A stretch of 64,000 nt of DNA, taken from positions 198,397 through 262,396 of the forward strand of contig JAWACY010000001.1 of the NCBI GenBank assembly GCA_038896535.1, given 5' to 3'. Positions 35,482 to 50,581 of the stretch are shown here, piece after piece. The notes beneath the pieces were generated by a model. It was not told the DNA's origin. It saw nothing but the letters and a program-made list of their open reading frames with translations, and did not search any database. The stretch comes from Candidatus Anstonellales archaeon (lineage in GTDB: Archaea > Micrarchaeota > Micrarchaeia > Anstonellales > J096). Each line of letters begins with the position of its first letter. The first letter of the stretch is position 1. The position numbers and the translations under genes were made by a program.

Positions 35482-38400
35482 ATGGTTGGTCATATGGGGA
35501 ATAAAAATTTTATGTATGGCATAAAACATGGCATAAAGCATTGCCCAAATATTTTTTTAATTGCGCTTTTGATTATAATATTAACAAATATTTCGTTTTC
35601 ACTTAACTTCATATCAACAATAGAAAAAAAAGGCAATGAAATAGAGATAACATTTTATCCATATAAAATTCAAGAACTTCCATATCAATCAAACCCAAGG
35701 CAGACAACAATACAGATATTGCCATACAACCAAGCTGATATAGAAAGCTTTACTTATTATGTTGAAATAATAAATGCTTCTGGCTCAGTAATATCTTCTT
35801 TTTCAGATTCACAACTCAAAACTTCTATGAAAAGGGGCACAATAAATTTTAATAATGCAAACATACAGGGAGTTATATTTACAATACCTAGCCCTGCTTT
35901 AAATCAGGAATGTGCAATTGTAAAATTAAGTATAGCCGGCATAATAGAAGAAAACAATGCCAGAAATTCATTTGATGAAAAAAGACAAGAAGTGATATGT
36001 GAAAAATCATACCCCCTGGCTTTTAGACAAGGCCTTTCTGATTTATTAACTGCTATTAATTCAAATGCTGGAGTGTGTTACTCAATATTATTCATTTTTG
36101 TTTTTGCTGCTGCTGCATATTATGCTAGATTTGGAAGTACAATAATATCATTATATGATGTTGTAAGTCCGAAAGTATTCAAACTTAAAGAGCCGATATA
36201 TTCTTTAATGAGTGTTTCTCCAAGAGGAGAAATAGCAAAAAAGCTTGAAGAAGCAGATAGAAAAGTAAGAGCCGCTCTATATAAAGATTATGAAGAAAAG
36301 CTCAAACAAGCAGGGATAAATGAAGGAAAGCAATTAAGTTCTTCTGTATTTGAGAAACATCTATTAACTGATAAAAAGTATAAGGAGATAATTGAAGAGA
36401 TAAAAAAGAACATTGATACAGGAGAAAAAATCATAGAACGGTCTAATTTTTCAAAAGAGGAAAAAAAACTCCTCCGAACATATTTAATATTATTGATGCT
36501 TGAACAGATAAAAAGTCCATTTGCTCCAGCAAGCGGCGTAGCAAGGCCAGAAGCAAAAAGAGTTGCGGCTGTTTTGAGGCCTTTTAAATATGTTGGCAAA
36601 ATTAAAGAGGTTAAGTATATTGGAAAACCATTAAATTGGCTTGCTTTGCCGTTGGTGTTAACATCAAAACAAATAGCATCATCTGCTTATACTATTTCAA
36701 AAGCGCCAAGAGCAGTTATAGAATATTTTGGCTTGGGTGAAGCTGCCAGACAAGCAAGAAAAGCAATTATTGAGAAAGAAATAGAGCCAAAAGGCGAAAA
36801 AGAGAAAAGAATGCGCAATATCATAGAACTATTAGCAGGCCCAGAAAAGAAGCATAACATCATTGACATAGCTGTATTTAACAAAATGCCTTCAGAAATA
36901 GAGGATCATTTAAGAAGAGGGCTTGCTGTTCAAGCTATTGAAATAGCCCTTGATAAAAACAGAGAGTTAAAGACAGCATTTAGAGAAATGCAAGAAGAAC
37001 TTGCTAATTTTAAAAGCAGCAAGGACATAACAAACAAAATAAATTCAATAATTGAAAGATTTGGGTCAGATAAAGATAGGGAAAATTTAAAGCTTATAAT
37101 TGAGATCATTAAGGCAGAAAACAGTTATGGAATGCTTGAACTGTTTAATAAATTTTTAGATAAGAATAATATAGATGATCAGATAAAGGGAAAGATAAAT
37201 GACATAATAAAATTGAAGGACAAAGGGATTACAAATATTGAATTAAACATTTTATTTAGCGATTTTATATCAAGAGATTTGCACGATTTTTCTGTTAGGC
37301 AAAGGCTTATAGGACCATATGGAGATGAATCAAGAGATAAAAATAAAAAAACTAAAGACGCCCTTTTTTATCTATTTTTGAACCACCTATATAATGAGTT
37401 TATATTTTTATTTGATAAGCAGCAGTTATCAAACCTTGATGAAGGAGCATTTATTTTATGCGCAAAAATAGCAGCACGCATGGCTTCATATGAAGCTATA
37501 AAGGCGATATACGGGCATGCAGAGAAAGCAGAAATAATTGCTAATTTCTATTCAGCATTAAAAGGAAAGCTTGAAAAAGGGGATAAAGAGCAAAAAGCAC
37601 TGGCAGCATTAATTGACATTGAAATAATTAAGAGAAGAGCAGAGCAAGCAGAAGAGCATTATAAAAACATAGTTGATTATGCAGATAGGATTAAAGAGAG
37701 ACTTAATATTGATATTAAGGGAAAGCTTTATGATTACATTTTTTCACATGAAAAAGAATTTTCTATTCCAGATGAAATGGCTAGGCCTGCATATATAGGG
37801 TTCAGGCCACAAAAAATAACAAATGAGGATATAGAATTCATTAATAAAGCAAGCATTAATATGCTTCCAGTTTATTTAACTGAAAAATACTACAAATTTA
37901 ACATATCGCTTTTAAATGAAATTACAAATTCATTAAGAGGGGCAATATCAGAAGTCGGCGTTTTTAAAGAAAGGTTTTCATCTAATGTATTGAGTTTAAC
38001 ACTCCAGACATTACTTGAAGAAAGGTCTGACAGGCTTTTGGGCTCTGGCATAGATGAGTTAAGAATGAAAAAAGACCTTTTATTGGGCTACATAATTTAT
38101 ATAAGCGAGAGGTATGACATTAGAGATAATGAAGGCATATATAAAAAACTGGAGGAAATTTCTAAAAACGGAATATCTGAAACAGAACTTGAAATAGCAA
38201 GTAAAAGAGGATTTTTGATAGGAAAAACAAAAGACAATGAAGTAATATTAATACCAACAGCAAGCGTTATGAACAAAGTTTTAATATCAGAGAAAGAAAA
38301 GAACAGTTTTCTTGGTTTTAGTGATAACACTAAAGAGAGGATAATGTCGAAATTAGAAAGGATAAAAGAAAATCCATTACTGTTCCTTGAGAGATTATCA

Positions 38401-40404
38401 ACATTTTATATAACCATAAGCGGAATTGAAGAGTATTATATACTAACAAATGATGGCGGTGTGCCAAAGTTAAATAGTTTAAAGCCTTCAGAAGCTTATA
38501 TAGACAGTGAAACAAAGGAAAGAATAGAGAATGTATTAAAAGCATTAGAGCAAAAATTAGGGCAAAAAATGCAATTAACTGATTTATTCAATGCAGATGT
38601 TAATAAATTTAATGATTATATAAAACAATTACAGAAAAATGGCTTATCAGAACTAGACATTTTCAAGCTTGCTTATTCATATTATAAGCATAAAAAAGAA
38701 ATTAATGAAAGGATATATCTTGGCGATATAGATGTTTTTAGAAATCCACAAGATTATAATTTAATAATAGGAACAAAAGAAGAAATAAAACAAAAGCTCA
38801 TTCAACTAAAACAGCTCTCTCCTTTGTTTGAGGCTCTATCACCCGGAGCAGAAAATATAGAAAGTATAAAAGCAACAAAGTTCAAATTCAAAAATGCAAT
38901 GCAGGAACTTTTTGAAGGTTTCATAAATACTCCTTTATCTATTTATCAAGCCCTACATCCATTTGAGGGCATAGAATATATGCCTTATATTAACGCCATG
39001 AACTTTTACAGAGTTGAAGAAATAAAGGAATTGGCAAAGCGTACTGGAGATATAGATAAGGAAAATTTCAAAGAAGCAATAAAGCTTTATGAAGAGCATT
39101 TTAATTCAATGGGTTTCTTCCTTGACAGGAGTGCAAATAATGTTGTAGCTTCATATTTAGATGATGAGCATACAAAATATGCAATAGCCAAACATTATAG
39201 AGGAAGCATATTTGTTCCAGCAGGATTTTTAACTGGAAAAGAAGGAGTTATAAATATAAATAAATCAATGTATATAGATGCTCCACTTTTGGGGCTTTAT
39301 TCCCCAATATTCTCTATAGCAACAAGATTAGCAGAACCAAAGATAAAATTACTTGCTTTAGTAAATCAAGCGCTTTATAGGCCTAGATATTATAATACAG
39401 GTTATGATATATCTCATGATTATGACGAAAATCTGCGTGAATACTTAGAGAAAAAATATAATATGAGAGAACAGGAAATTAAATTTTTGGGCCATATAAG
39501 AAATGTTTCTGGTAATTATTTTAATTATACAGCAGAAACAACTGCTATAAGGCATGCAGCAGCACTAAGACATGCAATATCACTTGGAGCTGGCTATTCA
39601 GTTCCTCTTGCCACAGCTTTATTTGGGGCTATGTTTGGGCCAGTAGGTTTAATGTTAACTGAAAGCGCAAGGTTAATGACTTCTTCATTTTATGGCACTA
39701 AATATAGCTATCTTGATAAATTTTTAATGAGGTTAAACAAAGATGAATTAAATTCATACATAACATTGAATGACCTTTATTATAGAGCAGCATTGCATCA
39801 AGAACAATTGCAATGGTATAAAAGAGGCATAGCTTCTGCTTATGGGCCGATAGGAGCAGTTTTAGGTTATGGTTACTACTCATATATGACAGGCCAGCTA
39901 AGGCCAGAACCAGCACTCATAAGGAGCTATGCCAGATGGATGCAAAGATATGAGAATAAGCCATTTGATATAAATGCATATCAAATAGCATTAAATCTTG
40001 GCAATTACAGGCTTGCTGATACTGATATGCTTGAAGCAGCTGAAAAAACAGCAGCAATTAAAGAATGGGGGAAGCTTGAATGGAATAAACTTGCTTATAC
40101 ATTTATTTTTCCTTCATTAATAGTGAATTTTGCAATTGAAAACATGGCACATTATGGAAAAGGCCTATATAAAGAAGGAAAAGCAAGAGGCTTAAAAGCT
40201 GCTGGTAAGAAAGTAGCTAAGGACATATCCGCTGTTTCAGCTACAACATTATTATTATATCTAAGTCCAGCAGCTGCTGTTGTTGTCCCCTCATATATAT
40301 TAAAACATTCTTTGGCAAGCATTAGAGCAATATGTCCAAATTGTAAGAGAGAAAGGCAAAAAAATGTCGAATGTCCATATTGTGGTTATGTAGGATTTGT
40401 TTAA
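35482..40404 (+). CDS. Giant hypothetical protein (1640 aa): N-terminal signal anchor, very large mostly alpha-helical body, C-terminal cluster of TM helices and a terminal CxxC..CxxC zinc ribbon
   Basis: Single uninterrupted ORF. N-terminal hydrophobic IFLIALLIIILTNISF. C-terminal hydrophobic segments from ~residue 1300, ending CPNCKRERQKNVECPYCGYVGFV. Confidence 0.6.
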   Translation: MVGHMGNKNFMYGIKHGIKHCPNIFLIALLIIILTNISFSLNFISTIEKKGNEIEITFYPYKIQELPYQSNPRQTTIQILPYNQADIESFTYYVEIINASGSVISSFSDSQLKTSMKRGTINFNNANIQGVIFTIPSPALNQECAIVKLSIAGIIEENNARNSFDEKRQEVICEKSYPLAFRQGLSDLLTAINSNAGVCYSILFIFVFAAAAYYARFGSTIISLYDVVSPKVFKLKEPIYSLMSVSPRGEIAKKLEEADRKVRAALYKDYEEKLKQAGINEGKQLSSSVFEKHLLTDKKYKEIIEEIKKNIDTGEKIIERSNFSKEEKKLLRTYLILLMLEQIKSPFAPASGVARPEAKRVAAVLRPFKYVGKIKEVKYIGKPLNWLALPLVLTSKQIASSAYTISKAPRAVIEYFGLGEAARQARKAIIEKEIEPKGEKEKRMRNIIELLAGPEKKHNIIDIAVFNKMPSEIEDHLRRGLAVQAIEIALDKNRELKTAFREMQEELANFKSSKDITNKINSIIERFGSDKDRENLKLIIEIIKAENSYGMLELFNKFLDKNNIDDQIKGKINDIIKLKDKGITNIELNILFSDFISRDLHDFSVRQRLIGPYGDESRDKNKKTKDALFYLFLNHLYNEFIFLFDKQQLSNLDEGAFILCAKIAARMASYEAIKAIYGHAEKAEIIANFYSALKGKLEKGDKEQKALAALIDIEIIKRRAEQAEEHYKNIVDYADRIKERLNIDIKGKLYDYIFSHEKEFSIPDEMARPAYIGFRPQKITNEDIEFINKASINMLPVYLTEKYYKFNISLLNEITNSLRGAISEVGVFKERFSSNVLSLTLQTLLEERSDRLLGSGIDELRMKKDLLLGYIIYISERYDIRDNEGIYKKLEEISKNGISETELEIASKRGFLIGKTKDNEVILIPTASVMNKVLISEKEKNSFLGFSDNTKERIMSKLERIKENPLLFLERLSTFYITISGIEEYYILTNDGGVPKLNSLKPSEAYIDSETKERIENVLKALEQKLGQKMQLTDLFNADVNKFNDYIKQLQKNGLSELDIFKLAYSYYKHKKEINERIYLGDIDVFRNPQDYNLIIGTKEEIKQKLIQLKQLSPLFEALSPGAENIESIKATKFKFKNAMQELFEGFINTPLSIYQALHPFEGIEYMPYINAMNFYRVEEIKELAKRTGDIDKENFKEAIKLYEEHFNSMGFFLDRSANNVVASYLDDEHTKYAIAKHYRGSIFVPAGFLTGKEGVININKSMYIDAPLLGLYSPIFSIATRLAEPKIKLLALVNQALYRPRYYNTGYDISHDYDENLREYLEKKYNMREQEIKFLGHIRNVSGNYFNYTAETTAIRHAAALRHAISLGAGYSVPLATALFGAMFGPVGLMLTESARLMTSSFYGTKYSYLDKFLMRLNKDELNSYITLNDLYYRAALHQEQLQWYKRGIASAYGPIGAVLGYGYYSYMTGQLRPEPALIRSYARWMQRYENKPFDINAYQIALNLGNYRLADTDMLEAAEKTAAIKEWGKLEWNKLAYTFIFPSLIVNFAIENMAHYGKGLYKEGKARGLKAAGKKVAKDISAVSATTLLLYLSPAAAVVVPSYILKHSLASIRAICPNCKRERQKNVECPYCGYVGFV

Positions 40405-43065: not shown

Positions 43066-43707
43066 TCATTTACAATTTATTTTTTCTTTTATGCTTGCTT
43101 CATTCAATAAAGTGTCAAATTTTTTATCATCTATTATTAATGTAGGAGCGCTTGTTATATTATAATATGATACGATAACATTCAAAGGTGATAATCCCTT
43201 TACATCTATTGGAAAAGCAAAAACTGCTGCATTATCGCATTTTTCCCTTATTACATCAAGCACATTTCCCTGCACTTTACATTCCGGGCAATCCTTGAAT
43301 GCAACATAAAAAAATAGTATATTACTTAAATTTTGTTGACAAACCTCTTTATATTCCCTTGTTAATAGATAAAGCTTAAAATTTGTTAAATAATATAGAT
43401 TTCTTAATTCATTCGGGCTTATTAAAATGTTAATATTCTGGTCTTCAAGAGTGTTTCTAATCTTATTTGTTTCCTGCCATAACTCATAAACGGCGCTTTT
43501 TAATGCAACGCAATTTGCCTTATTTTTTGTGCTTTGTATGAAAAGGATTGTTGTTGAACTGCTGTCTATTGCAATATTGAGCTCATTTATTGTATCCCTT
43601 ATTTTATTTGTCCTATCTACCTCTATGTAGTAGCCTATGCCTATCGATATAATAAATAATATGAGCGCAACAGCAGCCCCTTTCCAATAAATGCTTTTAT
43701 CTACCAT
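43066..43707 (-). CDS. Membrane-anchored protein with a CxxC motif (possible thioredoxin-like/DsbA-like thiol-disulfide oxidoreductase)
   Basis: N-terminal TM (ALILFIISIGIGYYI). AFKDCPECK CxxC in the C-terminal half. Start overlaps the upstream GT2 stop, so probably co-transcribed. Confidence 0.35.
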   Translation of the reverse strand: MVDKSIYWKGAAVALILFIISIGIGYYIEVDRTNKIRDTINELNIAIDSSSTTILFIQSTKNKANCVALKSAVYELWQETNKIRNTLEDQNINILISPNELRNLYYLTNFKLYLLTREYKEVCQQNLSNILFFYVAFKDCPECKVQGNVLDVIREKCDNAAVFAFPIDVKGLSPLNVIVSYYNITSAPTLIIDDKKFDTLLNEASIKEKINCK

Positions 43708-45014
43708 TTGTAATCAGCCCTGCCAAGTTCTTGAAAAAAGCTTAAAAAATAAGCAAAGCTTATAAAGAGGCTATAAAGTATTGTTGCTAAGAATATAGTT
43801 ATAAAATCGAAAATTGTTATATTGTTTGCAGTTATTTTTTTACTTAAATATGCAACAAGGAAAAAAGGCAGCATAAAAACAATGGCTATATACAATGCAG
43901 AACTGCTTAAGATTGGCAAGGATTCTATGACAATGCCAATGTTAGATAATATACTGTAAAATAAAAAGAGCAAGCCCCAGAAAAACTGCTTTATTAAAAT
44001 TATGCTTGTTGCCATAATAACAGTTATAGCAGCAAATTCAGCAGTCAAGCTGAAAGGCAGCATAAATGTGCCGAAATCACCATATTTAGGATTAAAAAGC
44101 ATATAATGGTATTTTTTTAAATTCACAAGCTTTCCTCTATACCATCTCAATCTCTGCCTTAACAAACCTTTTACTGTTTCAGGAACTTCTGTATAAACAA
44201 CTGCATCTAAGGCATATTCTATTTTGTAATGGTATTTCCTTAACCTCCAGCCCATCTCTAAATCTTCTGTAATGTTGTTTTCATCAAAAAGGCCTATTTT
44301 ATCAAACACGCTTTTTTTAAACAATGTCATTGGCCCAGGAGTGACAAAAATTATGTTAAAATATTTACCTATTAATGCATAAAGACCAAAACCAATGGCA
44401 TATTCTAAGTCTTGGAATTTTTTTATTAATTTGTCTGGCCTTTCAACCTTTATAAGAACAGCAACTGCACCAACATCTTTATTATTGAATTTTTTTACAG
44501 CATTTATTAATGCATCCTTATCTAAATATGTATCTGAATCAATGCATGCTATGATCTCATTTTTTGCTGCTTTTATGCCAGTATTTAATGCCTTTGCCTT
44601 TCCTTGATTTTTACCCATTTCTATTACTTTTATGCCCATGTTTTTTGCTATCTTTACACTATCATCTGTTGAACCATCATCTACATATATTATTTCTTTT
44701 TTTGTTGGATAATAAGCATTTTTTATTGATTCTATGCATCTCTTTAGTGTTTTACCAGCATTATAGCCAGGCACTATTATTGATATTGGCTCATAGTTTT
44801 TGTTCAATCTTTCTTTTTCATTACTTATGCTGAGATAACCGACAATAAATACACATGTTAAAACAAGCAAAAAGAAGTTTGGCACAAGCATGACCCAGAA
44901 ATAACCAATACTCTCAATAGCAACCCAGAAAATTGATAATAGCAATATAAAGCCAATAAGAGCAATTGTCCTATATTTTACTTTATCCATATTTATTTTA
45001 TCAATATTGTGCAT
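43701..45014 (-). CDS. Family-2 glycosyltransferase, processive membrane-embedded synthase type (PgaC/NodC/chitin- or cellulose-synthase-like)
   Basis: GT-A motifs YVDDGSTDDS, DSDTY (DxD) and the processivity motif QRLRW (QxxRW). N-terminal and C-terminal TM helix bundles flank the catalytic domain. 437 aa. Confidence 0.8.
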   Translation of the reverse strand: MHNIDKINMDKVKYRTIALIGFILLLSIFWVAIESIGYFWVMLVPNFFLLVLTCVFIVGYLSISNEKERLNKNYEPISIIVPGYNAGKTLKRCIESIKNAYYPTKKEIIYVDDGSTDDSVKIAKNMGIKVIEMGKNQGKAKALNTGIKAAKNEIIACIDSDTYLDKDALINAVKKFNNKDVGAVAVLIKVERPDKLIKKFQDLEYAIGFGLYALIGKYFNIIFVTPGPMTLFKKSVFDKIGLFDENNITEDLEMGWRLRKYHYKIEYALDAVVYTEVPETVKGLLRQRLRWYRGKLVNLKKYHYMLFNPKYGDFGTFMLPFSLTAEFAAITVIMATSIILIKQFFWGLLFLFYSILSNIGIVIESLPILSSSALYIAIVFMLPFFLVAYLSKKITANNITIFDFITIFLATILYSLFISFAYFLSFFQELGRADYKW

Positions 45015-45064: not shown

Positions 45065-47233
45065 ATGGAAACAACATCATTTTCCTATCCCGCTGGATTT
45101 AATGAACCTACAAGCCAGCTATATCAATCATTTGATCCAAATAATAAAGACGATATAGAAAGAGAAAAAAAAGCAGCTAAGGATTATCCACTTATTCCAT
45201 CTTTAATGTTATCATTTTTGCCTGTTGTTGGGCCAGTAATAGATCTTATAAAGGCGTTAGAAGAAGGCAAATATTTGGAAGCATCTATGTATGCTGGTTT
45301 TCTTGTATCAGATTTATTTTTAGTTGGTTATGCTGCTAAATTACCCTTTAAATTTGCTATAAGATATTTGACTATTGATCAGATTGCTGATATATTTAGA
45401 CTTGGTTATAAAGCAATAAAAAAATTGAAGGAAGCAGGCAAAGCAGTTCCAAAAGAACTAGAGAGATTCTATAAATATTTACATGATCTCGGGGATATAA
45501 TTGCTGAAATGAAACAAGAGGGGGCAATGAGCCAAAAATTAAAAGAATACAGACGTGTTCTGGAAGAGATAAGAGGGGCTATTAAAATGCGGATAAAAGA
45601 AATGGGCCTTTATCATTATTTTGAAGCAAGAAGATTAGAAAAAGAAAAATTCTTAGAGAGCTTAAGAACATATATCGAACAAGAAATAAAAATTGGCGGT
45701 AATATATTAAAAGCATTGAAAGGCGACCAGAGAATAAGTGGTTATGCATTATTACTTGATAAAAGTGGTATGTGGAAATTAAATATGCTGTTGGGTAAGG
45801 CAGGGGGCGATATTGCTTTAGGTTTATATAATAGAGCTATTAAGGAAACAATAAAAGAGTTTGGGGAACTAATAAAAAAGGCAGAGATAAGTGAGGAAGA
45901 TATTTTGATAATTTATAAACCAGCAGGCGGAGATGAGTTTTATTTACATTTTTTATCAACAGATCCTTCAAAAGCAGAAAAAGCAGCAGCACTATTTGTT
46001 GAATTAGTAAAGGAAAAAATCCAAAAGGGAATAATAGAATTAGAAGCTTTGTTGCCACCTGGTTTAGCACATCAGTTAAAACAAAGTATTAATGAAATGC
46101 TAAATGGCTTAGCCTGGCATGGAAAGAGAGTTAATATTGAACCAAAGGGCAATGTAATAAAATTTTTTTCACCACATGGAGAGATAAGTGGCATACCAGA
46201 ATACCTTGGTGAAGTTGAATTTGAAAAATTGAGATCTAACCTGCCTGAAAAGATTGCTGACTTTTTTGATGGTTTTAGAAGGGCATTAAAAAGCGTAAAA
46301 GAAACAGTTCCATTGAATGTAGTTGATGTAGAAAAAGCGGTAAAAGCTTTGAAAGAAGGGAGTGCAAAGCTCATCAGGTTTGAGTTAATAATACCAAGTA
46401 AATTTTCACGACATTTTGATGCCTTAACAAGAGCAGCAGAGAAGGGCTATAGCGTTACATTTAATAGGGCTGGTCCAAGTGTTTTTAATTTACTTGGCCA
46501 TGATGTTACTGATACGATAAGGGATTTATATATTAAATCATTAAAGGAAGCTGCCAAGGAAATTGGTGTAGATATAGAAATTAGTGCAATAGATGGAAAA
46601 GGCCCATTTACCCTACTTGTTAAACTGTCTGATGAAAAAAAATTAAATGAATTAATGGAAAGAGCCAGAAGAATATTTGAAAGCTATGAAAATATTTCTC
46701 GTTATAGATTTAGGTTATCACAAGAAGCAGTCAGTAGGTTTGAAGATTTAAGCAGTCCAATAAAAAAGGTATATGAAGAAATAAACAAAGTCTCATCAGA
46801 AAATCCTACAATAAAGAGGCGAATAAATGAATGGACAACAAGATTGGGAGTACGTGAAAATGAAGCCTTAGAAAGGATGTTTAATACTTCATTAATTCTT
46901 ATTAAAACCCATTATGATAAATTTAGTAATTTAATAGGCCGTATGAATATTCCATATGAATTGAAAAAAGCAATAAAAGAGTTTGCAGAAGATAAAAGGG
47001 CAAGAAGCCTTGAAGATTTTTCTAGTATTCTAGAAAAGTACAAGCAAACAGGCGAATTTATTAGGTTGTTATTCACAAGAGAAGTTTCATTGCTACTTTT
47101 GGAGTTTTTATATAACCCAGAAAGATTTAGTGAAAAAGAAAAACAACCAAAACAACCAAAAACATTGGGTAGGGGTGATTTTGGGCAGCCAACTACTGAA
47201 TATATGCCACCCCCAGAAAGGTTGAAAAAATAA
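45065..47233 (+). CDS. GGDEF (diguanylate-cyclase-like nucleotidyl cyclase) domain protein with a long C-terminal uncharacterised region
   Basis: Residues ~225-300 are collinear with the GGDEF consensus: ALLLDKSGMWKLNMLLGKAGGDIAL (cf. LLLDIDHFKxINDxyGHxxGDxVL) and IIYKPAGGDEFYLHF (cf. RYGGEEFavll). The I-site RxxD is degenerate (SEED). Confidence 0.6.
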   Translation: METTSFSYPAGFNEPTSQLYQSFDPNNKDDIEREKKAAKDYPLIPSLMLSFLPVVGPVIDLIKALEEGKYLEASMYAGFLVSDLFLVGYAAKLPFKFAIRYLTIDQIADIFRLGYKAIKKLKEAGKAVPKELERFYKYLHDLGDIIAEMKQEGAMSQKLKEYRRVLEEIRGAIKMRIKEMGLYHYFEARRLEKEKFLESLRTYIEQEIKIGGNILKALKGDQRISGYALLLDKSGMWKLNMLLGKAGGDIALGLYNRAIKETIKEFGELIKKAEISEEDILIIYKPAGGDEFYLHFLSTDPSKAEKAAALFVELVKEKIQKGIIELEALLPPGLAHQLKQSINEMLNGLAWHGKRVNIEPKGNVIKFFSPHGEISGIPEYLGEVEFEKLRSNLPEKIADFFDGFRRALKSVKETVPLNVVDVEKAVKALKEGSAKLIRFELIIPSKFSRHFDALTRAAEKGYSVTFNRAGPSVFNLLGHDVTDTIRDLYIKSLKEAAKEIGVDIEISAIDGKGPFTLLVKLSDEKKLNELMERARRIFESYENISRYRFRLSQEAVSRFEDLSSPIKKVYEEINKVSSENPTIKRRINEWTTRLGVRENEALERMFNTSLILIKTHYDKFSNLIGRMNIPYELKKAIKEFAEDKRARSLEDFSSILEKYKQTGEFIRLLFTREVSLLLLEFLYNPERFSEKEKQPKQPKTLGRGDFGQPTTEYMPPPERLKK

Positions 47234-47244
47234 TATAAAATTTG

Positions 47245-48120
47245 TTAATTAACTTCACACATAATGAAATTACCAAATCTTACTATTTTAACATTTCCAC
47301 CAAGTTCTTTAATTCTTTTATAATCATTTTGCCTTCTTTTTTTATCTAGGATATGTGCTATCTCAAATGCTTTTTTCAACTCCTCATTGTTTAGGCAGGG
47401 ATTAAATTTCTGTTCTTCAAGCCCATCCAGCCCATCTAAATTTTTTGTTAATCTAGAGATGAACAACTCAAATAATTTTGTTGCATATCCAGTTATGTAA
47501 TATTTTGATATCCAATTAGCTATTATCCTTGCAGTTTCTCTTTCATTTTTATCCTTTATACTTTCAACCATATCATTTATTTCATCTGGATGTTTACCGT
47601 TTAAATCTTGGCTCTCATAAATTCTGTAAGCAACAAATAGAATATTATAATAGCCAGCACTCTTTATTTTTTCTTTAAATTCTAATAACCATTCAAATTC
47701 TTTAACCAAAGAGTTAATTTTTCCAATCACTTGTTTTTTACTTTCTTCTTTGCCTGATTTTTCTAATTTGTATAGTAATTCTTTTACTTTTATCTCAAGA
47801 GCAGCTATAATACTTAAATCTTTATCATCTACTAATTTTGATACGTTGTTTAGTAAATTTTCTTTTAAATGTCCATAATTATCTAAGTCCAATTTTTCAA
47901 ATATCTTTTCAAGTGCCATTCTTATATTGGCAGAGAATAACTTTATTTTTCCCTCCTTCTCATGTCCTTCGTAATCCCAGTAAAAGAACAAATAATGGAG
48001 TTTATTCTCTATAAATTCTAAATCTCTATTTAAAAAATCACTAATAAAAGGCGGCAGTTCTAAGCCCAGCAATTTATCTGGATAATCTGGTGGGTTAATG
48101 TTTCTTATGTTGGCTTCCAT
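47245..48120 (-). CDS. Hypothetical alpha-helical protein, 291 aa, convergent with the GGDEF gene
   Basis: ORF with no recognisable motif. 11-nt gap to the GGDEF gene stop on the opposite strand. Confidence 0.45.
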   Translation of the reverse strand: MEANIRNINPPDYPDKLLGLELPPFISDFLNRDLEFIENKLHYLFFYWDYEGHEKEGKIKLFSANIRMALEKIFEKLDLDNYGHLKENLLNNVSKLVDDKDLSIIAALEIKVKELLYKLEKSGKEESKKQVIGKINSLVKEFEWLLEFKEKIKSAGYYNILFVAYRIYESQDLNGKHPDEINDMVESIKDKNERETARIIANWISKYYITGYATKLFELFISRLTKNLDGLDGLEEQKFNPCLNNEELKKAFEIAHILDKKRRQNDYKRIKELGGNVKIVRFGNFIMCEVN

Positions 48121-49540: not shown

Positions 49541-50581
49541 ATGGACAACAATAAAACATGCATAAAAAGGAAAATTAAACAATTCATAAAGCATGTTGCA
49601 TTGTCATCATTATTATTTTTTGCTGGTTATGAATTAGGCAATATAAACAATGCAAATAAAATAAATAATATAAATGTCTTCAATAATTATAAGCCAAGAG
49701 CAAGCTTATTAGATAGTAATAAATGCAATTTTTTGAGTAAATTCTTTTTGCCAATTTCTAATTATGGCTATGCATGTATTGAACATGAAGTGATGAATAA
49801 TATAAAAAGTTTATTATCAAGCAAATATTATAATAATTTTGATTATTATGCAAATTATCACATATCCCTATTAGAATCACTTGAGATGAAAGAAATAAAG
49901 GCTTTGCAAGAAGTCAATGGCATTGAGTTTTTTGCAAGATATGATATTTTTACGTTAAAAACAGCTTATTATTACTTAAAAAATGGCAATAAAGACAAAA
50001 AGCCAGTGATTTTAACGGCAACATCAAAATATGATAATAATGCATTTATATCAACAGGCGAGTTAATAGGAAGCATAAGAAAAAAGTATAAAAACGATTT
50101 TTTAATAATGCCTGTTGAGGTAAATTCAAAAGAGGATTTGCTGAATAAACTAAAATTATTGACAGAAAAAATAGGCAAAATAAGCATTCTCATAATATCA
50201 GCACATGGCCTTGTTGATGGTAGAGGAATACAGCTTGGGATTGATGAAAATGGAAATAATTTATTTTTCACTATGTATGATGAATATGAGATGACTGAGA
50301 TGAAGAAATATTTATTGTATAAAAACATGCCGGCAATAGTATTAATATCTTGTTATGCCGGCATAAAAAATGGTTTTGCTGAAATGCTGGCAAAAAAAAC
50401 AAACGCTATTGTTATAGCAGCAGTTTCATATGTTTATGCCCCAGCAACGTTATTTATAAATGACAATGAGCATGGTTATGAAATTTATGGCTTTCCAGAG
50501 GAGGAAGATGATAGGTTAAGTGATTTATCATTTTATAAAGGCGAAAACTTCTGGAGGTTAAAAAGAGTAATAGTGCCATGA
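49541..50581 (+). CDS. Membrane-anchored clan-CD cysteine peptidase-like protein (caspase/legumain/CHAT-type His-Cys dyad)
   Basis: N-terminal TM (VALSSLLFFAGY). Hydrophobic strand + HG (ISILIISAHG), then ~55 aa later hydrophobic strand + Cys (PAIVLISCYAG). This is the canonical clan-CD arrangement. Confidence 0.5.
   Translation: MDNNKTCIKRKIKQFIKHVALSSLLFFAGYELGNINNANKINNINVFNNYKPRASLLDSNKCNFLSKFFLPISNYGYACIEHEVMNNIKSLLSSKYYNNFDYYANYHISLLESLEMKEIKALQEVNGIEFFARYDIFTLKTAYYYLKNGNKDKKPVILTATSKYDNNAFISTGELIGSIRKKYKNDFLIMPVEVNSKEDLLNKLKLLTEKIGKISILIISAHGLVDGRGIQLGIDENGNNLFFTMYDEYEMTEMKKYLLYKNMPAIVLISCYAGIKNGFAEMLAKKTNAIVIAAVSYVYAPATLFINDNEHGYEIYGFPEEEDDRLSDLSFYKGENFWRLKRVIVP

Follow-up and report, generated by a model that had tools for sequence, protein, structure and literature searches.

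GGDEF-type enzymes and c-di-GMP signalling are viewed as almost exclusively bacterial (PMC10249747, PMC5847659, PMC10086821), and a REC-inactivated GGDEF regulator has been described in Ca. Micrarchaeum acidiphilum (PMC5847659). Another palm-fold system, mCpol, is described as a stand-alone signalling palm enzyme (PMC11974786). GGDEF cyclases (PF00990; PleD, WspR, DgcZ, DosC and SadC) contain a palm of β1-α1-α2-β2-β3-α3-β4 topology, with an Asp at the end of β1, an acidic pair between β2 and β3, and an Asn and a Gly-Asp in α1/α2; in many sensor GGDEF cyclases a membrane segment and a helical linker lie upstream of the palm. We found the same topology, the same residues in the same register and a similar predicted arrangement upstream in a protein encoded by a Candidatus Anstonellales archaeon, within a window of 64,000 nucleotides (the whole stretch of DNA that was analysed).

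The open reading frame has exactly the position and length that were given in a preliminary description of this DNA, and the three strings quoted there, LLLDKSGMWK (aa 229-238), GKAGGDIAL (aa 244-252) and AGGDEFYLHF (aa 287-296), were all found in its translation. The protein is identical to 'hypothetical protein QXS91_00025 [Candidatus Anstonellales archaeon]' in databases, and the identical protein is carried by a 419 kb contig of the lineage Archaea; Nanobdellati; Microcaldota; Micrarchaeia. We consider that it is probably a membrane-associated enzyme with two tandem palms of the GGDEF/cyclase type, acting as a nucleotidyl cyclase or transferase, and we give this reading a probability of roughly 0.55. 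The features to which the text refers are as follows.

45065..47233, plus strand: whole gene, 722 aa, ATG start; member of a small uncharacterised family.
45185..45343, plus strand: hydrophobic hairpin near the N-terminus (aa 41-93), predicted from Kyte-Doolittle values to associate with the membrane.
45362..45709, plus strand: helical linker (aa ~100-215) that joins the hydrophobic hairpin to palm domain A.
45728..46294, plus strand: palm domain A (aa ~222-410), of GGDEF-like type and with a putative catalytic role; β1 224-231, α1 236-243, α2 245-272, β2 281-286, β3 292-298, α3 301-347, β-meander 351-374, α4 377-409.
45758..45811, plus strand: motif D232-K233-x3-W237-x-L239-N240 ... G248-D249, from conservation in 14 sequences and the hhalign register with PleD.
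45926..45940, plus strand: GGDEF pentapeptide (aa 288-292) in the turn of the β2-β3 hairpin; acidic pair D290/E291 invariant.
46358..46744, plus strand: palm domain B (aa ~432-560), same fold, predicted to be catalytically degenerate.
46472..46513, plus strand: motif G470-P-S472-x-x-N475-L-x-G478-H479-x-x-x-D483, a predicted nucleotide-binding site with no carboxylates.
46595..46609, plus strand: GKGPF (aa 511-515), which takes the place of GGDEF in the hairpin of domain B (hhalign of A against B; family alignment).
46745..47170, plus strand: C-terminal all-helical domain (aa ~561-702), from model helices; conserved W-V-R-x-x-E-D-L-x-x-Y-L element, RARSLEDFSSIL.
47245..48120, minus strand: tentative partner gene, 291 aa, convergent, 11 nt past the stop codon; no Pfam match.

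Word-indexed homologue searches with the protein or the family alignment as query returned only the protein itself, and relatives emerged only from exhaustive HMMER searching, which gave nine among 1.84 billion (1.84e9) representative proteins. Scans of genomes and metagenomes added a few further relatives, with seven genome loci, all from Micrarchaeota. The members are multidomain proteins of 600 to more than 2000 aa, and the 14 sequences compared for domain A have an overall identity to the query of about 20-37%. This is a tiny, uncharacterised family whose taxon-labelled members were 100% archaeal, nearly all of them from MAGs of DPANN Micrarchaeota. The region around the window gene had an even GC content, and the gene is flanked by that of CDP-archaeol synthase and by other housekeeping genes; these observations, with the archaeal 419 kb contig and the labels of the relatives, show that the gene is archaeal, as described earlier, and not part of a chimera. 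An origin in a mobile element was also considered, and was dropped when no relatives of the protein were found in phage, plasmid and IMG/VR collections.

The relation of domain A to GGDEF domains was established by profile comparison. When the family profile was aligned with a PleD-family profile by hhalign, a score of 34.0 (E 8e-5, probability 60%) was obtained with the D, N, GD and GG[DE]EF positions in register, and reversed and shuffled controls scored 15.4 or less. In like-for-like alignments a single GGDEF sequence scored 29.3 versus 16.2 for a single class III cyclase. The spacing of D232, N240, G244 and G248-D249 equalled, without gaps, that of D327, N335, G339 and G343-D344 in PleD; hhalign confirmed the register and aligned D232, D290 and E291 with PleD D327 and E370-E371. 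Invariant in 14/14 sequences were D232, K233, L239, N240, G248, D249, Y255, D290 and E291. The preliminary description had claimed that the GGDEF motifs occur in their proper order, which we could confirm for D232, N240, G248-D249 and GGDEF at 288-292, and it had treated loss of the metal-binding Asp/Glu on proper alignment as the point at which its claim might fail; D232, D290 and E291 were all kept. In the predicted model domain A had the GGDEF-type palm fold (β1-α1-α2-β2-β3-α3-β4...), with the lowest confidence at the catalytic hairpin (pLDDT 54-73) and an underlying alignment of only 10 sequences. D232, at the end of β1, is the predicted metal-binding Asp, and N240 and D249, which align with the guanine-contacting N335 and D344 of PleD, may have a similar role here. 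As judged from these alignments, domain A is truly related to the GGDEF domain of bacteria, but as a remote and very divergent homologue, and the homology is not strong.

The domain had earlier been called canonical, a label that is contradicted by the absence of a PF00990 match even at E<=10, by the G-x-D-E form of the motif and by the missing phosphate-binding motif. PF00990 matched neither the full protein nor the excised domain at this threshold, none of eight full-length relatives at E<=0.1 and none of 14 excised A domains, and GGDEF went undetected in the protein and in every relative by Pfam, NCBIfam and PDB sequence searches. The sole natural match of the family HMM in the PDB was DosC, with E 0.12; matches of the family profile to motif C of family-B DNA polymerases (E about 0.3) and to DUF3801 were not significant. 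The family motif reads DKxKxWxLN…GDxxLxxY…G-x-DE, and the literal GGDEF is specific to a clade. The hairpin variants in the relatives were GGDEF, GGDEI, GSDEI, GADEI, EGDEL/EGDEI, QGDEL and KGDEM, with the literal GGDE in 4/14 members and GGDEF in 2/14, and therefore the GG[DE]EF signature is not conserved in the family. Reading the alignment by eye, we found a Lys aligned with the phosphate-binding K442 of PleD in 8/14 members (Asn392 in the window protein), and no GRN motif, Y-x-A-K-x-x-G-R-N phosphate-binding motif or RxxD I-site. Domain A differs from GGDEF domains also in the residue following the metal-binding Asp, which is an invariant Lys in the family and hydrophobic in GGDEF domains, in the GH of α2, which is absent here and present in domain B, and in a β-meander inserted after β4, along with the G-x-DE hairpin. 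In addition, the palm is fused to another, degenerate palm and to a helical domain that is novel, and the members are archaeal (Micrarchaeota) only. Because the family is tiny, uncharacterised, DPANN and remote from GGDEF, we regard the protein as a candidate archaeal nucleotide-signal enzyme and not as a canonical c-di-GMP cyclase.

Thus the motifs, the fold and a remote GGDEF homology stand from the earlier interpretation, and the canonical label falls, as does the statement that the ~420-aa C-terminal region matches nothing; this region is made up of a degenerate second palm and a helical domain. Compared with domain A, domain B is a duplicated copy of the palm that has lost all three carboxylates, and it is predicted to be catalytically dead. 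Its GKGPF hairpin contains no acidic residue, and hhalign with controls did not recognise the domain as GGDEF by sequence. Conservation within the family peaks in the GPSxxNLxGHxxxD motif of domain B (S472, N475, G478, H479 and D483, and also K460, G513 and P514, were invariant in 10 sequences), and the GPS loop and G-P hairpin of this domain are specific to the family and set it apart from the degenerate GGDEF sensors LapD, FimX and PA2567. In the C-terminal helical domain, which had no Pfam or PDB match, R647 and L656 were invariant and D651 nearly so.

The N-terminal hydrophobic segment of the preliminary description was recovered as two peaks, with Kyte-Doolittle 19-residue means of 1.88 (aa 44-62) and 1.37 (aa 73-91). 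In each full-length relative, similar segments (one or two) precede the palm by 150-300 aa, and the order of hydrophobic hairpin, helical linker and palm is kept in all full-length members. The hydrophobicity suggests that the hairpin may insert into the membrane. The last ~15 residues of the linker were modelled as short helices with low confidence, and the rest of it is predicted to be helical from its Lys/Glu-rich sequence; membrane-bound diguanylate cyclases have a signalling helix ahead of GGDEF, to which the linker is comparable in position by analogy. A 'P-V-V-G...D' hydrophobic region at the N-terminus, which we took to resemble the pre-toxin TG domain of polymorphic toxins, was scanned against Pfam (five N-terminal regions, E<=10), and since the scans gave no support this idea was dropped.

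The neighbourhood of the gene offered a possible partner. In every locus that reaches beyond the 3' end of the family gene, a small Pfam-negative gene abuts that end. The partner in the window is weakly similar to those of locus L016 (E 3e-4, C-terminal 106 aa) and locus L007 (E 2e-4). In L005, L012, L013 and L014 the start of the partner overlaps the stop codon of the family gene by 4 nt, and the partners that run in the same direction as the family gene, each about 180 aa long (L003, L005 and L012-L014), form a clear family. A single partner family was rejected, as no homology could be detected between this co-directional group and the convergent partners in the window, L006, L007 and L009. 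We tentatively regard the small neighbour as a fast-evolving candidate partner. In L003, L006 and L007 the family gene has a gene for an Apyc1-like metallo-beta-lactamase no more than about 5 kb away; there was no homologue of it anywhere in the window, and this synteny was therefore taken as coincidental. A GT2 gene adjoins the window gene and GT4 genes lie upstream in L012 and L014; since these cases represent no more than two independent lineages, we treat the glycosyltransferase link as a lead only. The neighbours across nine loci were otherwise housekeeping genes, and tRNAs were all that Rfam detected in the window and in 11 loci.

In the mechanism that we propose, NTP-Mg, with GTP as the probable nucleotide, would be taken up by domain A, which would catalyse an attack on its alpha-phosphate. 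D232 at the end of β1 and D290-E291 in the β2-β3 hairpin would support two-metal catalysis, and N240 and D249 occupy the sites at which diguanylate cyclases recognise guanine. Domain B would provide a non-catalytic nucleotide site, which might receive the acceptor or else an allosteric ligand; this pairing has analogues in C1/C2 of class III cyclases, in the two palms of Cas10 and in bacterial degenerate GGDEF domains that sense GTP. Such a reaction would yield a signal nucleotide that contains guanine, either a dinucleotide or a longer oligonucleotide and either linear or cyclic. With one catalytic half-site on each chain, dimerisation would be needed to make a symmetric cyclic dinucleotide. 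The N-terminal hairpin and the helical linker could couple activity to the membrane, and the fast-evolving neighbour protein might be a regulator or a target. A more specific version, which we put forward tentatively and which is more probably wrong than right, is that the protein is the founding member of a family of second-messenger synthases native to archaea. In this version a tandem GGDEF-like enzyme of pseudo-heterodimeric form would serve DPANN Micrarchaeota by making, at the membrane, a cyclic or linear (oligo)nucleotide signal based on guanine; it would have a dedicated fast-evolving partner, and might have a link to the episymbiont-host interface or to the synthesis of cell-surface polysaccharides.

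An alternative is that the protein senses nucleotides or acts as a scaffold and is no enzyme: both palms would only bind ligands or partners in the manner of the degenerate GGDEF proteins LapD, FimX and PelD, and the conserved acidic residues would be there for binding or stability. Degenerate GGDEF domains typically lose their catalytic residues first. The strict invariance of the Asp / Asp-Glu triad, N240 and D249 in domain A despite 20-37% identity is what one would expect of an active site, and we judge a sensor or scaffold rather unlikely.

The primary reading of the preliminary description was a true diguanylate cyclase, which would dimerise through the helical linker, bring its A domains face to face as in PleD and WspR and produce c-di-GMP, with domain B as an accessory. 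The PF00990 profile that never matched, the G-x-DE motif in place of GG[DE]EF and the C-terminal phosphate-binding motif that is not conserved all speak against such an enzyme. Moreover, the model leaves unexplained that the strongest conservation of the family is in domain B, and the glycosyltransferase neighbour is confined to two independent lineages. In the fraction of the genome that was examined, the surroundings of the gene showed neither a riboswitch nor a gene for an EAL, HD-GYP or PilZ protein, and no degrading enzyme or receptor. c-di-GMP was undetected in the archaea examined, and GGDEF, EAL and PilZ are almost absent from archaea (PMC10249747, PMC5847659, PMC10086821). Taken with these points, a diguanylate cyclase appears quite unlikely.

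As a fallback the preliminary description had offered a signalling palm that is not a true c-di-GMP cyclase, which is nearer to the evidence, with the qualification that membership in mCpol or Cas10 was not supported. A synthase of cyclic oligonucleotides like Cas10 or mCpol, or a small polymerase, acting in a conflict module (defence or symbiont-host) with the diverging neighbour as effector or immunity protein, would share with the family the GGDD/GGDEF-like hairpin and, in Cas10, the tandem palms followed by a helical C-terminal domain. However, Cas10, mCpol and other PADLOC models gave no match to the protein, and no CRISPR, array, CARF, SAVED or Csm/Cmr genes were found near the nine family loci. 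Foldseek matches to Csm1/Cmr2 were marginal (E 4e-3 to 0.16, TM-scores 0.14-0.20), the TM-scores against Cas10 were 0.17-0.20, and a whole-chain Foldseek search of the PDB returned nothing below E 1e-3. Unlike Cas10, the family lacks an HD domain, a zinc finger and a CRISPR/effector context, and its acidic hairpin is in the first palm and not in the second; the order of active and inactive palm in Cas10 is the reverse. Nor does the protein resemble the small stand-alone palm beside a cyclic-nucleotide-sensing effector that characterises mCpol, as it is multidomain and has no recognisable effector nearby, and the housekeeping neighbours and the absence of phage, plasmid and IMG/VR relatives also speak against a conflict module, which we hold to be improbable. 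Class III cyclases (mammalian AC C1/C2, soluble guanylyl cyclase alpha/beta; PF00211) showed no sequence similarity, their hhalign score of 16.2 being noise, and neither a PF00211 match nor the F-x-D-I-x-G-F-T motif was present. The archaeal GTP cyclohydrolase III (MJ0145) performs a different chemistry from the one proposed here and illustrates that the same fold can do non-transferase chemistry; there was no PF05165, Pfam or NCBIfam match to it, and it was absent from the best 60 structural matches to the whole model.

A chance motif or bacterial contamination is effectively refuted already: the pentapeptide by itself is weak evidence, with literal GGDEF in just two family members, but the composition of the window predicts 0.012 occurrences of GG[DE]EF in its six-frame translation, where there is one, the profile-profile comparison agrees with the fold, and the 419 kb contig with its even GC and the labelled relatives, nearly all from Micrarchaeota, are archaeal.

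Our analysis indicates that a GGDEF-related, putatively catalytic palm missed by standard annotation is present in DPANN archaea, with its predicted catalytic residues intact and fused to an apparently dead duplicate. If inactive, the protein would be a lineage marker of unassigned role in organisms whose genomes are very small and in which a gene that has been kept usually matters. If active, it would be a concrete and easily assayed candidate for a new archaeal nucleotide signal, and an evolutionary intermediate between homodimeric GGDEF cyclases and pseudo-heterodimers such as class III cyclases and Cas10. Should the reading as a second-messenger synthase be true, GGDEF-type signalling in archaea would have arisen by vertical, lineage-specific evolution and not by transfer from bacteria.

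The open reading frame singled out in the preliminary description was recovered at exactly its given position, with an ATG start, and the three quoted strings were all found in its translation: LLLDKSGMWK (aa 229–238), GKAGGDIAL (aa 244–252) and AGGDEFYLHF (aa 287–296).

45065–47233, + strand: the family gene, encoding the 722-aa family protein
45926–45940, + strand: the GGDEF pentapeptide, aa 288–292 of the translated ORF

The reported N-terminal hydrophobicity corresponded to two moderately hydrophobic segments (aa 44–62 and 73–91). The claim of an archaeal host also held: contigs of at most 419 kb from a Candidatus Anstonellales archaeon carry the identical protein as a hypothetical entry, the source lineage is Archaea; Nanobdellati (DPANN); Microcaldota; Micrarchaeia, the GC content is even throughout the region around the gene, and among the neighbours are genes for CDP-archaeol synthase, ribosomal proteins S7 and S12, a LeuA/homocitrate synthase-type enzyme and a thiolase. 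A chance motif or contamination can be practically dismissed; six-frame translation of the 64-kb window yielded one GG[DE]EF against 0.012 expected from composition. The initial observation is confirmed and its interpretation partly supported. The label 'canonical' was wrong, because Pfam, NCBIfam and PDB sequence searches reported no GGDEF match, even at E ≤ 10, either for the full-length protein or for excised aa 212–358.

A word-indexed protein search returned only the family protein itself. When 1.84 billion cluster representatives were scanned exhaustively with HMMER, nine relatives emerged (E 2e-33 to 9e-4), those with names being Micrarchaeota, Bilamarchaeaceae or unclassified archaeal MAGs. 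A DNA-pattern scan with the most conserved peptide of the family, covering a single genome for each GTDB species, found seven loci, all in Micrarchaeota/Micrarchaeia MAGs; a metagenome scan added one further locus, and phage, plasmid and IMG/VR collections contained no member. The family is small and, among the sequences searched, restricted to Micrarchaeota. We found no description of it in the literature, and its members are named 'hypothetical protein' throughout, apart from one JGI 'YlxM' label that Pfam did not reproduce. Members are 590–840 aa long, except for one sub-clade of giants (about 1340–2000 aa) that contain this core within a longer chain.

L006, 7282–13296: giant member, 2004 aa
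L007, 3109–8439: giant member, 1776 aa
L009, 2704–6717: giant member, about 1337 aa

At the N-terminus these giants are extended by a helical region of about 900 aa, two of the three also have C-terminal extensions of 400–560 aa without Pfam matches, and a small ORF of 88–110 aa precedes each gene.

In the family alignments one or two hydrophobic segments and then a helical linker lead into domain A (aa ~222–410), the GGDEF-like palm. Its residues D232, K233, L239, N240, G248, D249, Y255, D290 and E291 are invariant and W237 is nearly so, giving the motif D-K-x-K-x-W-x-L-N ... G-D-x-x-L-x-x-Y ... G-x-D-E. Metal-binding and base-reading positions were invariant in 14/14 sequences, with the remainder drifted to 20–37% identity. 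Literal GGDEF occurs only in the window protein and member P0002; two more members have GGDEI, and the others GSDEI, GADEI, EGDEL/EGDEI, QGDEL or KGDEM. The exact pentapeptide noted at first is thus one clade's spelling of an acidic hairpin that the family conserves.

Comparison by hhalign of the domain A profile with a PleD-type GGDEF profile (PF00990-bearing proteins, retrieved with a PleD query sequence) gave a score of 34.0, E 8e-5 and a probability of 60%. The register paired D232, N240 and G-D249 with D327, N335 and G-D344 of PleD, and GGDEF with GGEEF. Controls with the GGDEF profile reversed or, in 30 versions, column-shuffled scored at most 15.4. In a like-for-like single-sequence test PleD scored 29.3 versus 16.2, equal to noise, for a class III cyclase of a Micrarchaeota MAG. 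A PDB search with the 14-sequence domain A HMM retrieved one natural protein, the diguanylate cyclase DosC, at only E 0.12 and in register across 80 residues. An AlphaFold2 model of aa 202–702, resting on a 10-sequence alignment (pLDDT 79.9, pTM 0.74), predicted the element order b1-a1-a2-b2-b3-a3-b4 for domain A and placed GGDEF at the turn between b2 and b3; it was least confident near this hairpin (pLDDT 54–73). On this evidence domain A is a genuine but remote homologue of GGDEF domains, by a small margin over other palm families.

Domain B (aa ~432–560) is the most conserved part of the family, with invariant K460, S472, N475, G478, H479, D483, G513 and P514 and the motif G-P-S-x-x-N-L-x-G-H-x-x-x-D ... 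G-P. It aligned with domain A by hhalign at E 1e-3 in the expected register (N240-N475, D249-D483, Y255-Y489, GGDEF-GKGPF). Domain B against GGDEF, by sequence alone, was indistinguishable from noise in hhalign with controls. Carboxylates are absent at all three metal-binding positions, but the retained N...G-H...D helix motif is nearer than that of domain A to the GGDEF consensus N-D-x-x-G-H-x-x-G-D. Domain B is a second, degenerate palm produced by duplication, with catalysis lost and an invariant pocket kept. The helical C-terminal domain carries a W-V-R-x-x-E-D-L-x-x-Y-L element.

The family gene is surrounded by housekeeping genes that vary from locus to locus, and the sole constant neighbour is a small gene without Pfam matches at its 3' end, a dedicated downstream neighbour and tentative partner.

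47245–48120, − strand: window partner, 291 aa, convergent
43701–45014, − strand: GT2 synthase-like membrane glycosyltransferase, divergent, 50 nt upstream of the family-gene start

At L005, L012, L013 and L014 the partner (about 180 aa, well conserved) starts 4 nt ahead of the family-gene stop codon; at L016, from the clade closest to the window, a 254-aa partner gene overlaps that codon. The window, L006, L007 and L009 have a convergent partner of 173–291 aa. The window partner is weakly similar to those of L016 (E 3e-4) and L007 (E 2e-4), and profile methods gave no link between the ~180-aa and convergent groups. The window GT2 has flanking hydrophobic segments and cellulose/chitin-synthase-like Pfam matches, and in L012 and L014 the gene immediately upstream of the family gene encodes a GT4 glycosyltransferase. 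Synthases of this kind are under c-di-GMP control in bacteria, which makes the proximity suggestive of a possible functional link to surface polysaccharide synthesis, in two independent lineages only.

Several further features were recorded at these loci. Rfam searches returned tRNAs only; three matches of 109–122 nt (L005 7253–7361, L012 7888–8009, L009 2204–2320) exceed the usual tRNA length and are presumed to hold introns, which are common in archaea. L005 encodes a membrane-anchored class III nucleotidyl cyclase (PF00211; 9192–10106, − strand) 6.5 kb from the family gene, so at least some such organisms have conventional cyclic-nucleotide synthesis. An Apyc1-like metallo-beta-lactamase-fold gene, of a Pfam family that includes cyclic-nucleotide phosphodiesterases, lies about 5 kb or less from the family gene in L003 (4036–4833), L006 (18219–19100) and L007 (13458–14339), and has no homologue in the 64-kb window. 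An NTP_transf_2 nucleotidyltransferase and HEPN pair (L006 3779–4764) forms a typical MNT-HEPN toxin-antitoxin module, located some 2.5 kb upstream of that locus's family gene. In the window, a 1640-aa ORF without Pfam match (35482–40404, + strand), 4.7 kb upstream of the family gene, begins with a hydrophobic segment near the N-terminus and ends in a zinc-ribbon-like CxxC...CxxC stretch. L002, the NCBI assembly of the same organism, breaks this stretch into three genes (260, 439 and 852 aa) and splits the thiolase (84 and 286 aa), which points to frameshift differences between the assemblies. Two proteins with hydrophobic N-terminal segments received no convincing family assignment: one of 346 aa without Pfam match (49541–50581, + strand) and one of 213 aa with only a sub-threshold thioredoxin-like match (43066–43707, − strand).

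In its predicted working the family protein most resembles enzymes of the GGDEF or class III cyclase type. We favour, at a probability of about 55%, a reading in which domain A would act on an NTP by two-metal nucleotidyl transfer, with N240 and D249 making GTP the probable substrate; domain B would offer a nucleotide site without catalysis, occupied by an acceptor or allosteric ligand; and the output would be a nucleotide signal. C1/C2 adenylyl cyclases, Cas10 and GTP-sensing degenerate GGDEF domains provide parallels for such a domain B, and a hydrophobic hairpin and helical linker are conserved upstream of domain A. This functional reading depends on remote homology and on a model of moderate confidence, and the family is tiny. 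A non-enzymatic sensor or scaffold is unlikely. Somewhat less probable still is a true c-di-GMP cyclase acting through A-A dimerisation: the protein has the fold, remote homology and catalytic residues of GGDEF enzymes and lacks a PF00990 match, a conserved GG[DE]EF signature and the C-terminal phosphate-binding motif. On these absences we rejected filing it as a GGDEF-domain diguanylate cyclase. A Cas10/mCpol-like conflict module is improbable; a PADLOC scan of the protein returned no Cas10 or other nucleotide-signalling defence model. Whole-chain Foldseek gave no match below E 1e-3, and its alignments to chlorite dismutases (tandem ferredoxin folds) and Cas10/Csm1 chains were marginal and of low TM.

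Given the mixed outcome of the GGDEF comparisons, we class the protein, with its new tandem arrangement, as a new and divergent branch within the GGDEF-like palm superfamily. GGDEF proteins are described as nearly absent from archaea; reports mention a single Methanocella protein and, from Ca. Micrarchaeum acidiphilum, a REC-inactivated GGDEF regulator of questioned archaeal origin (PMC5847659; also PMC10249747, PMC10086821). The family described here is real and a testable candidate for archaeal nucleotide signalling.
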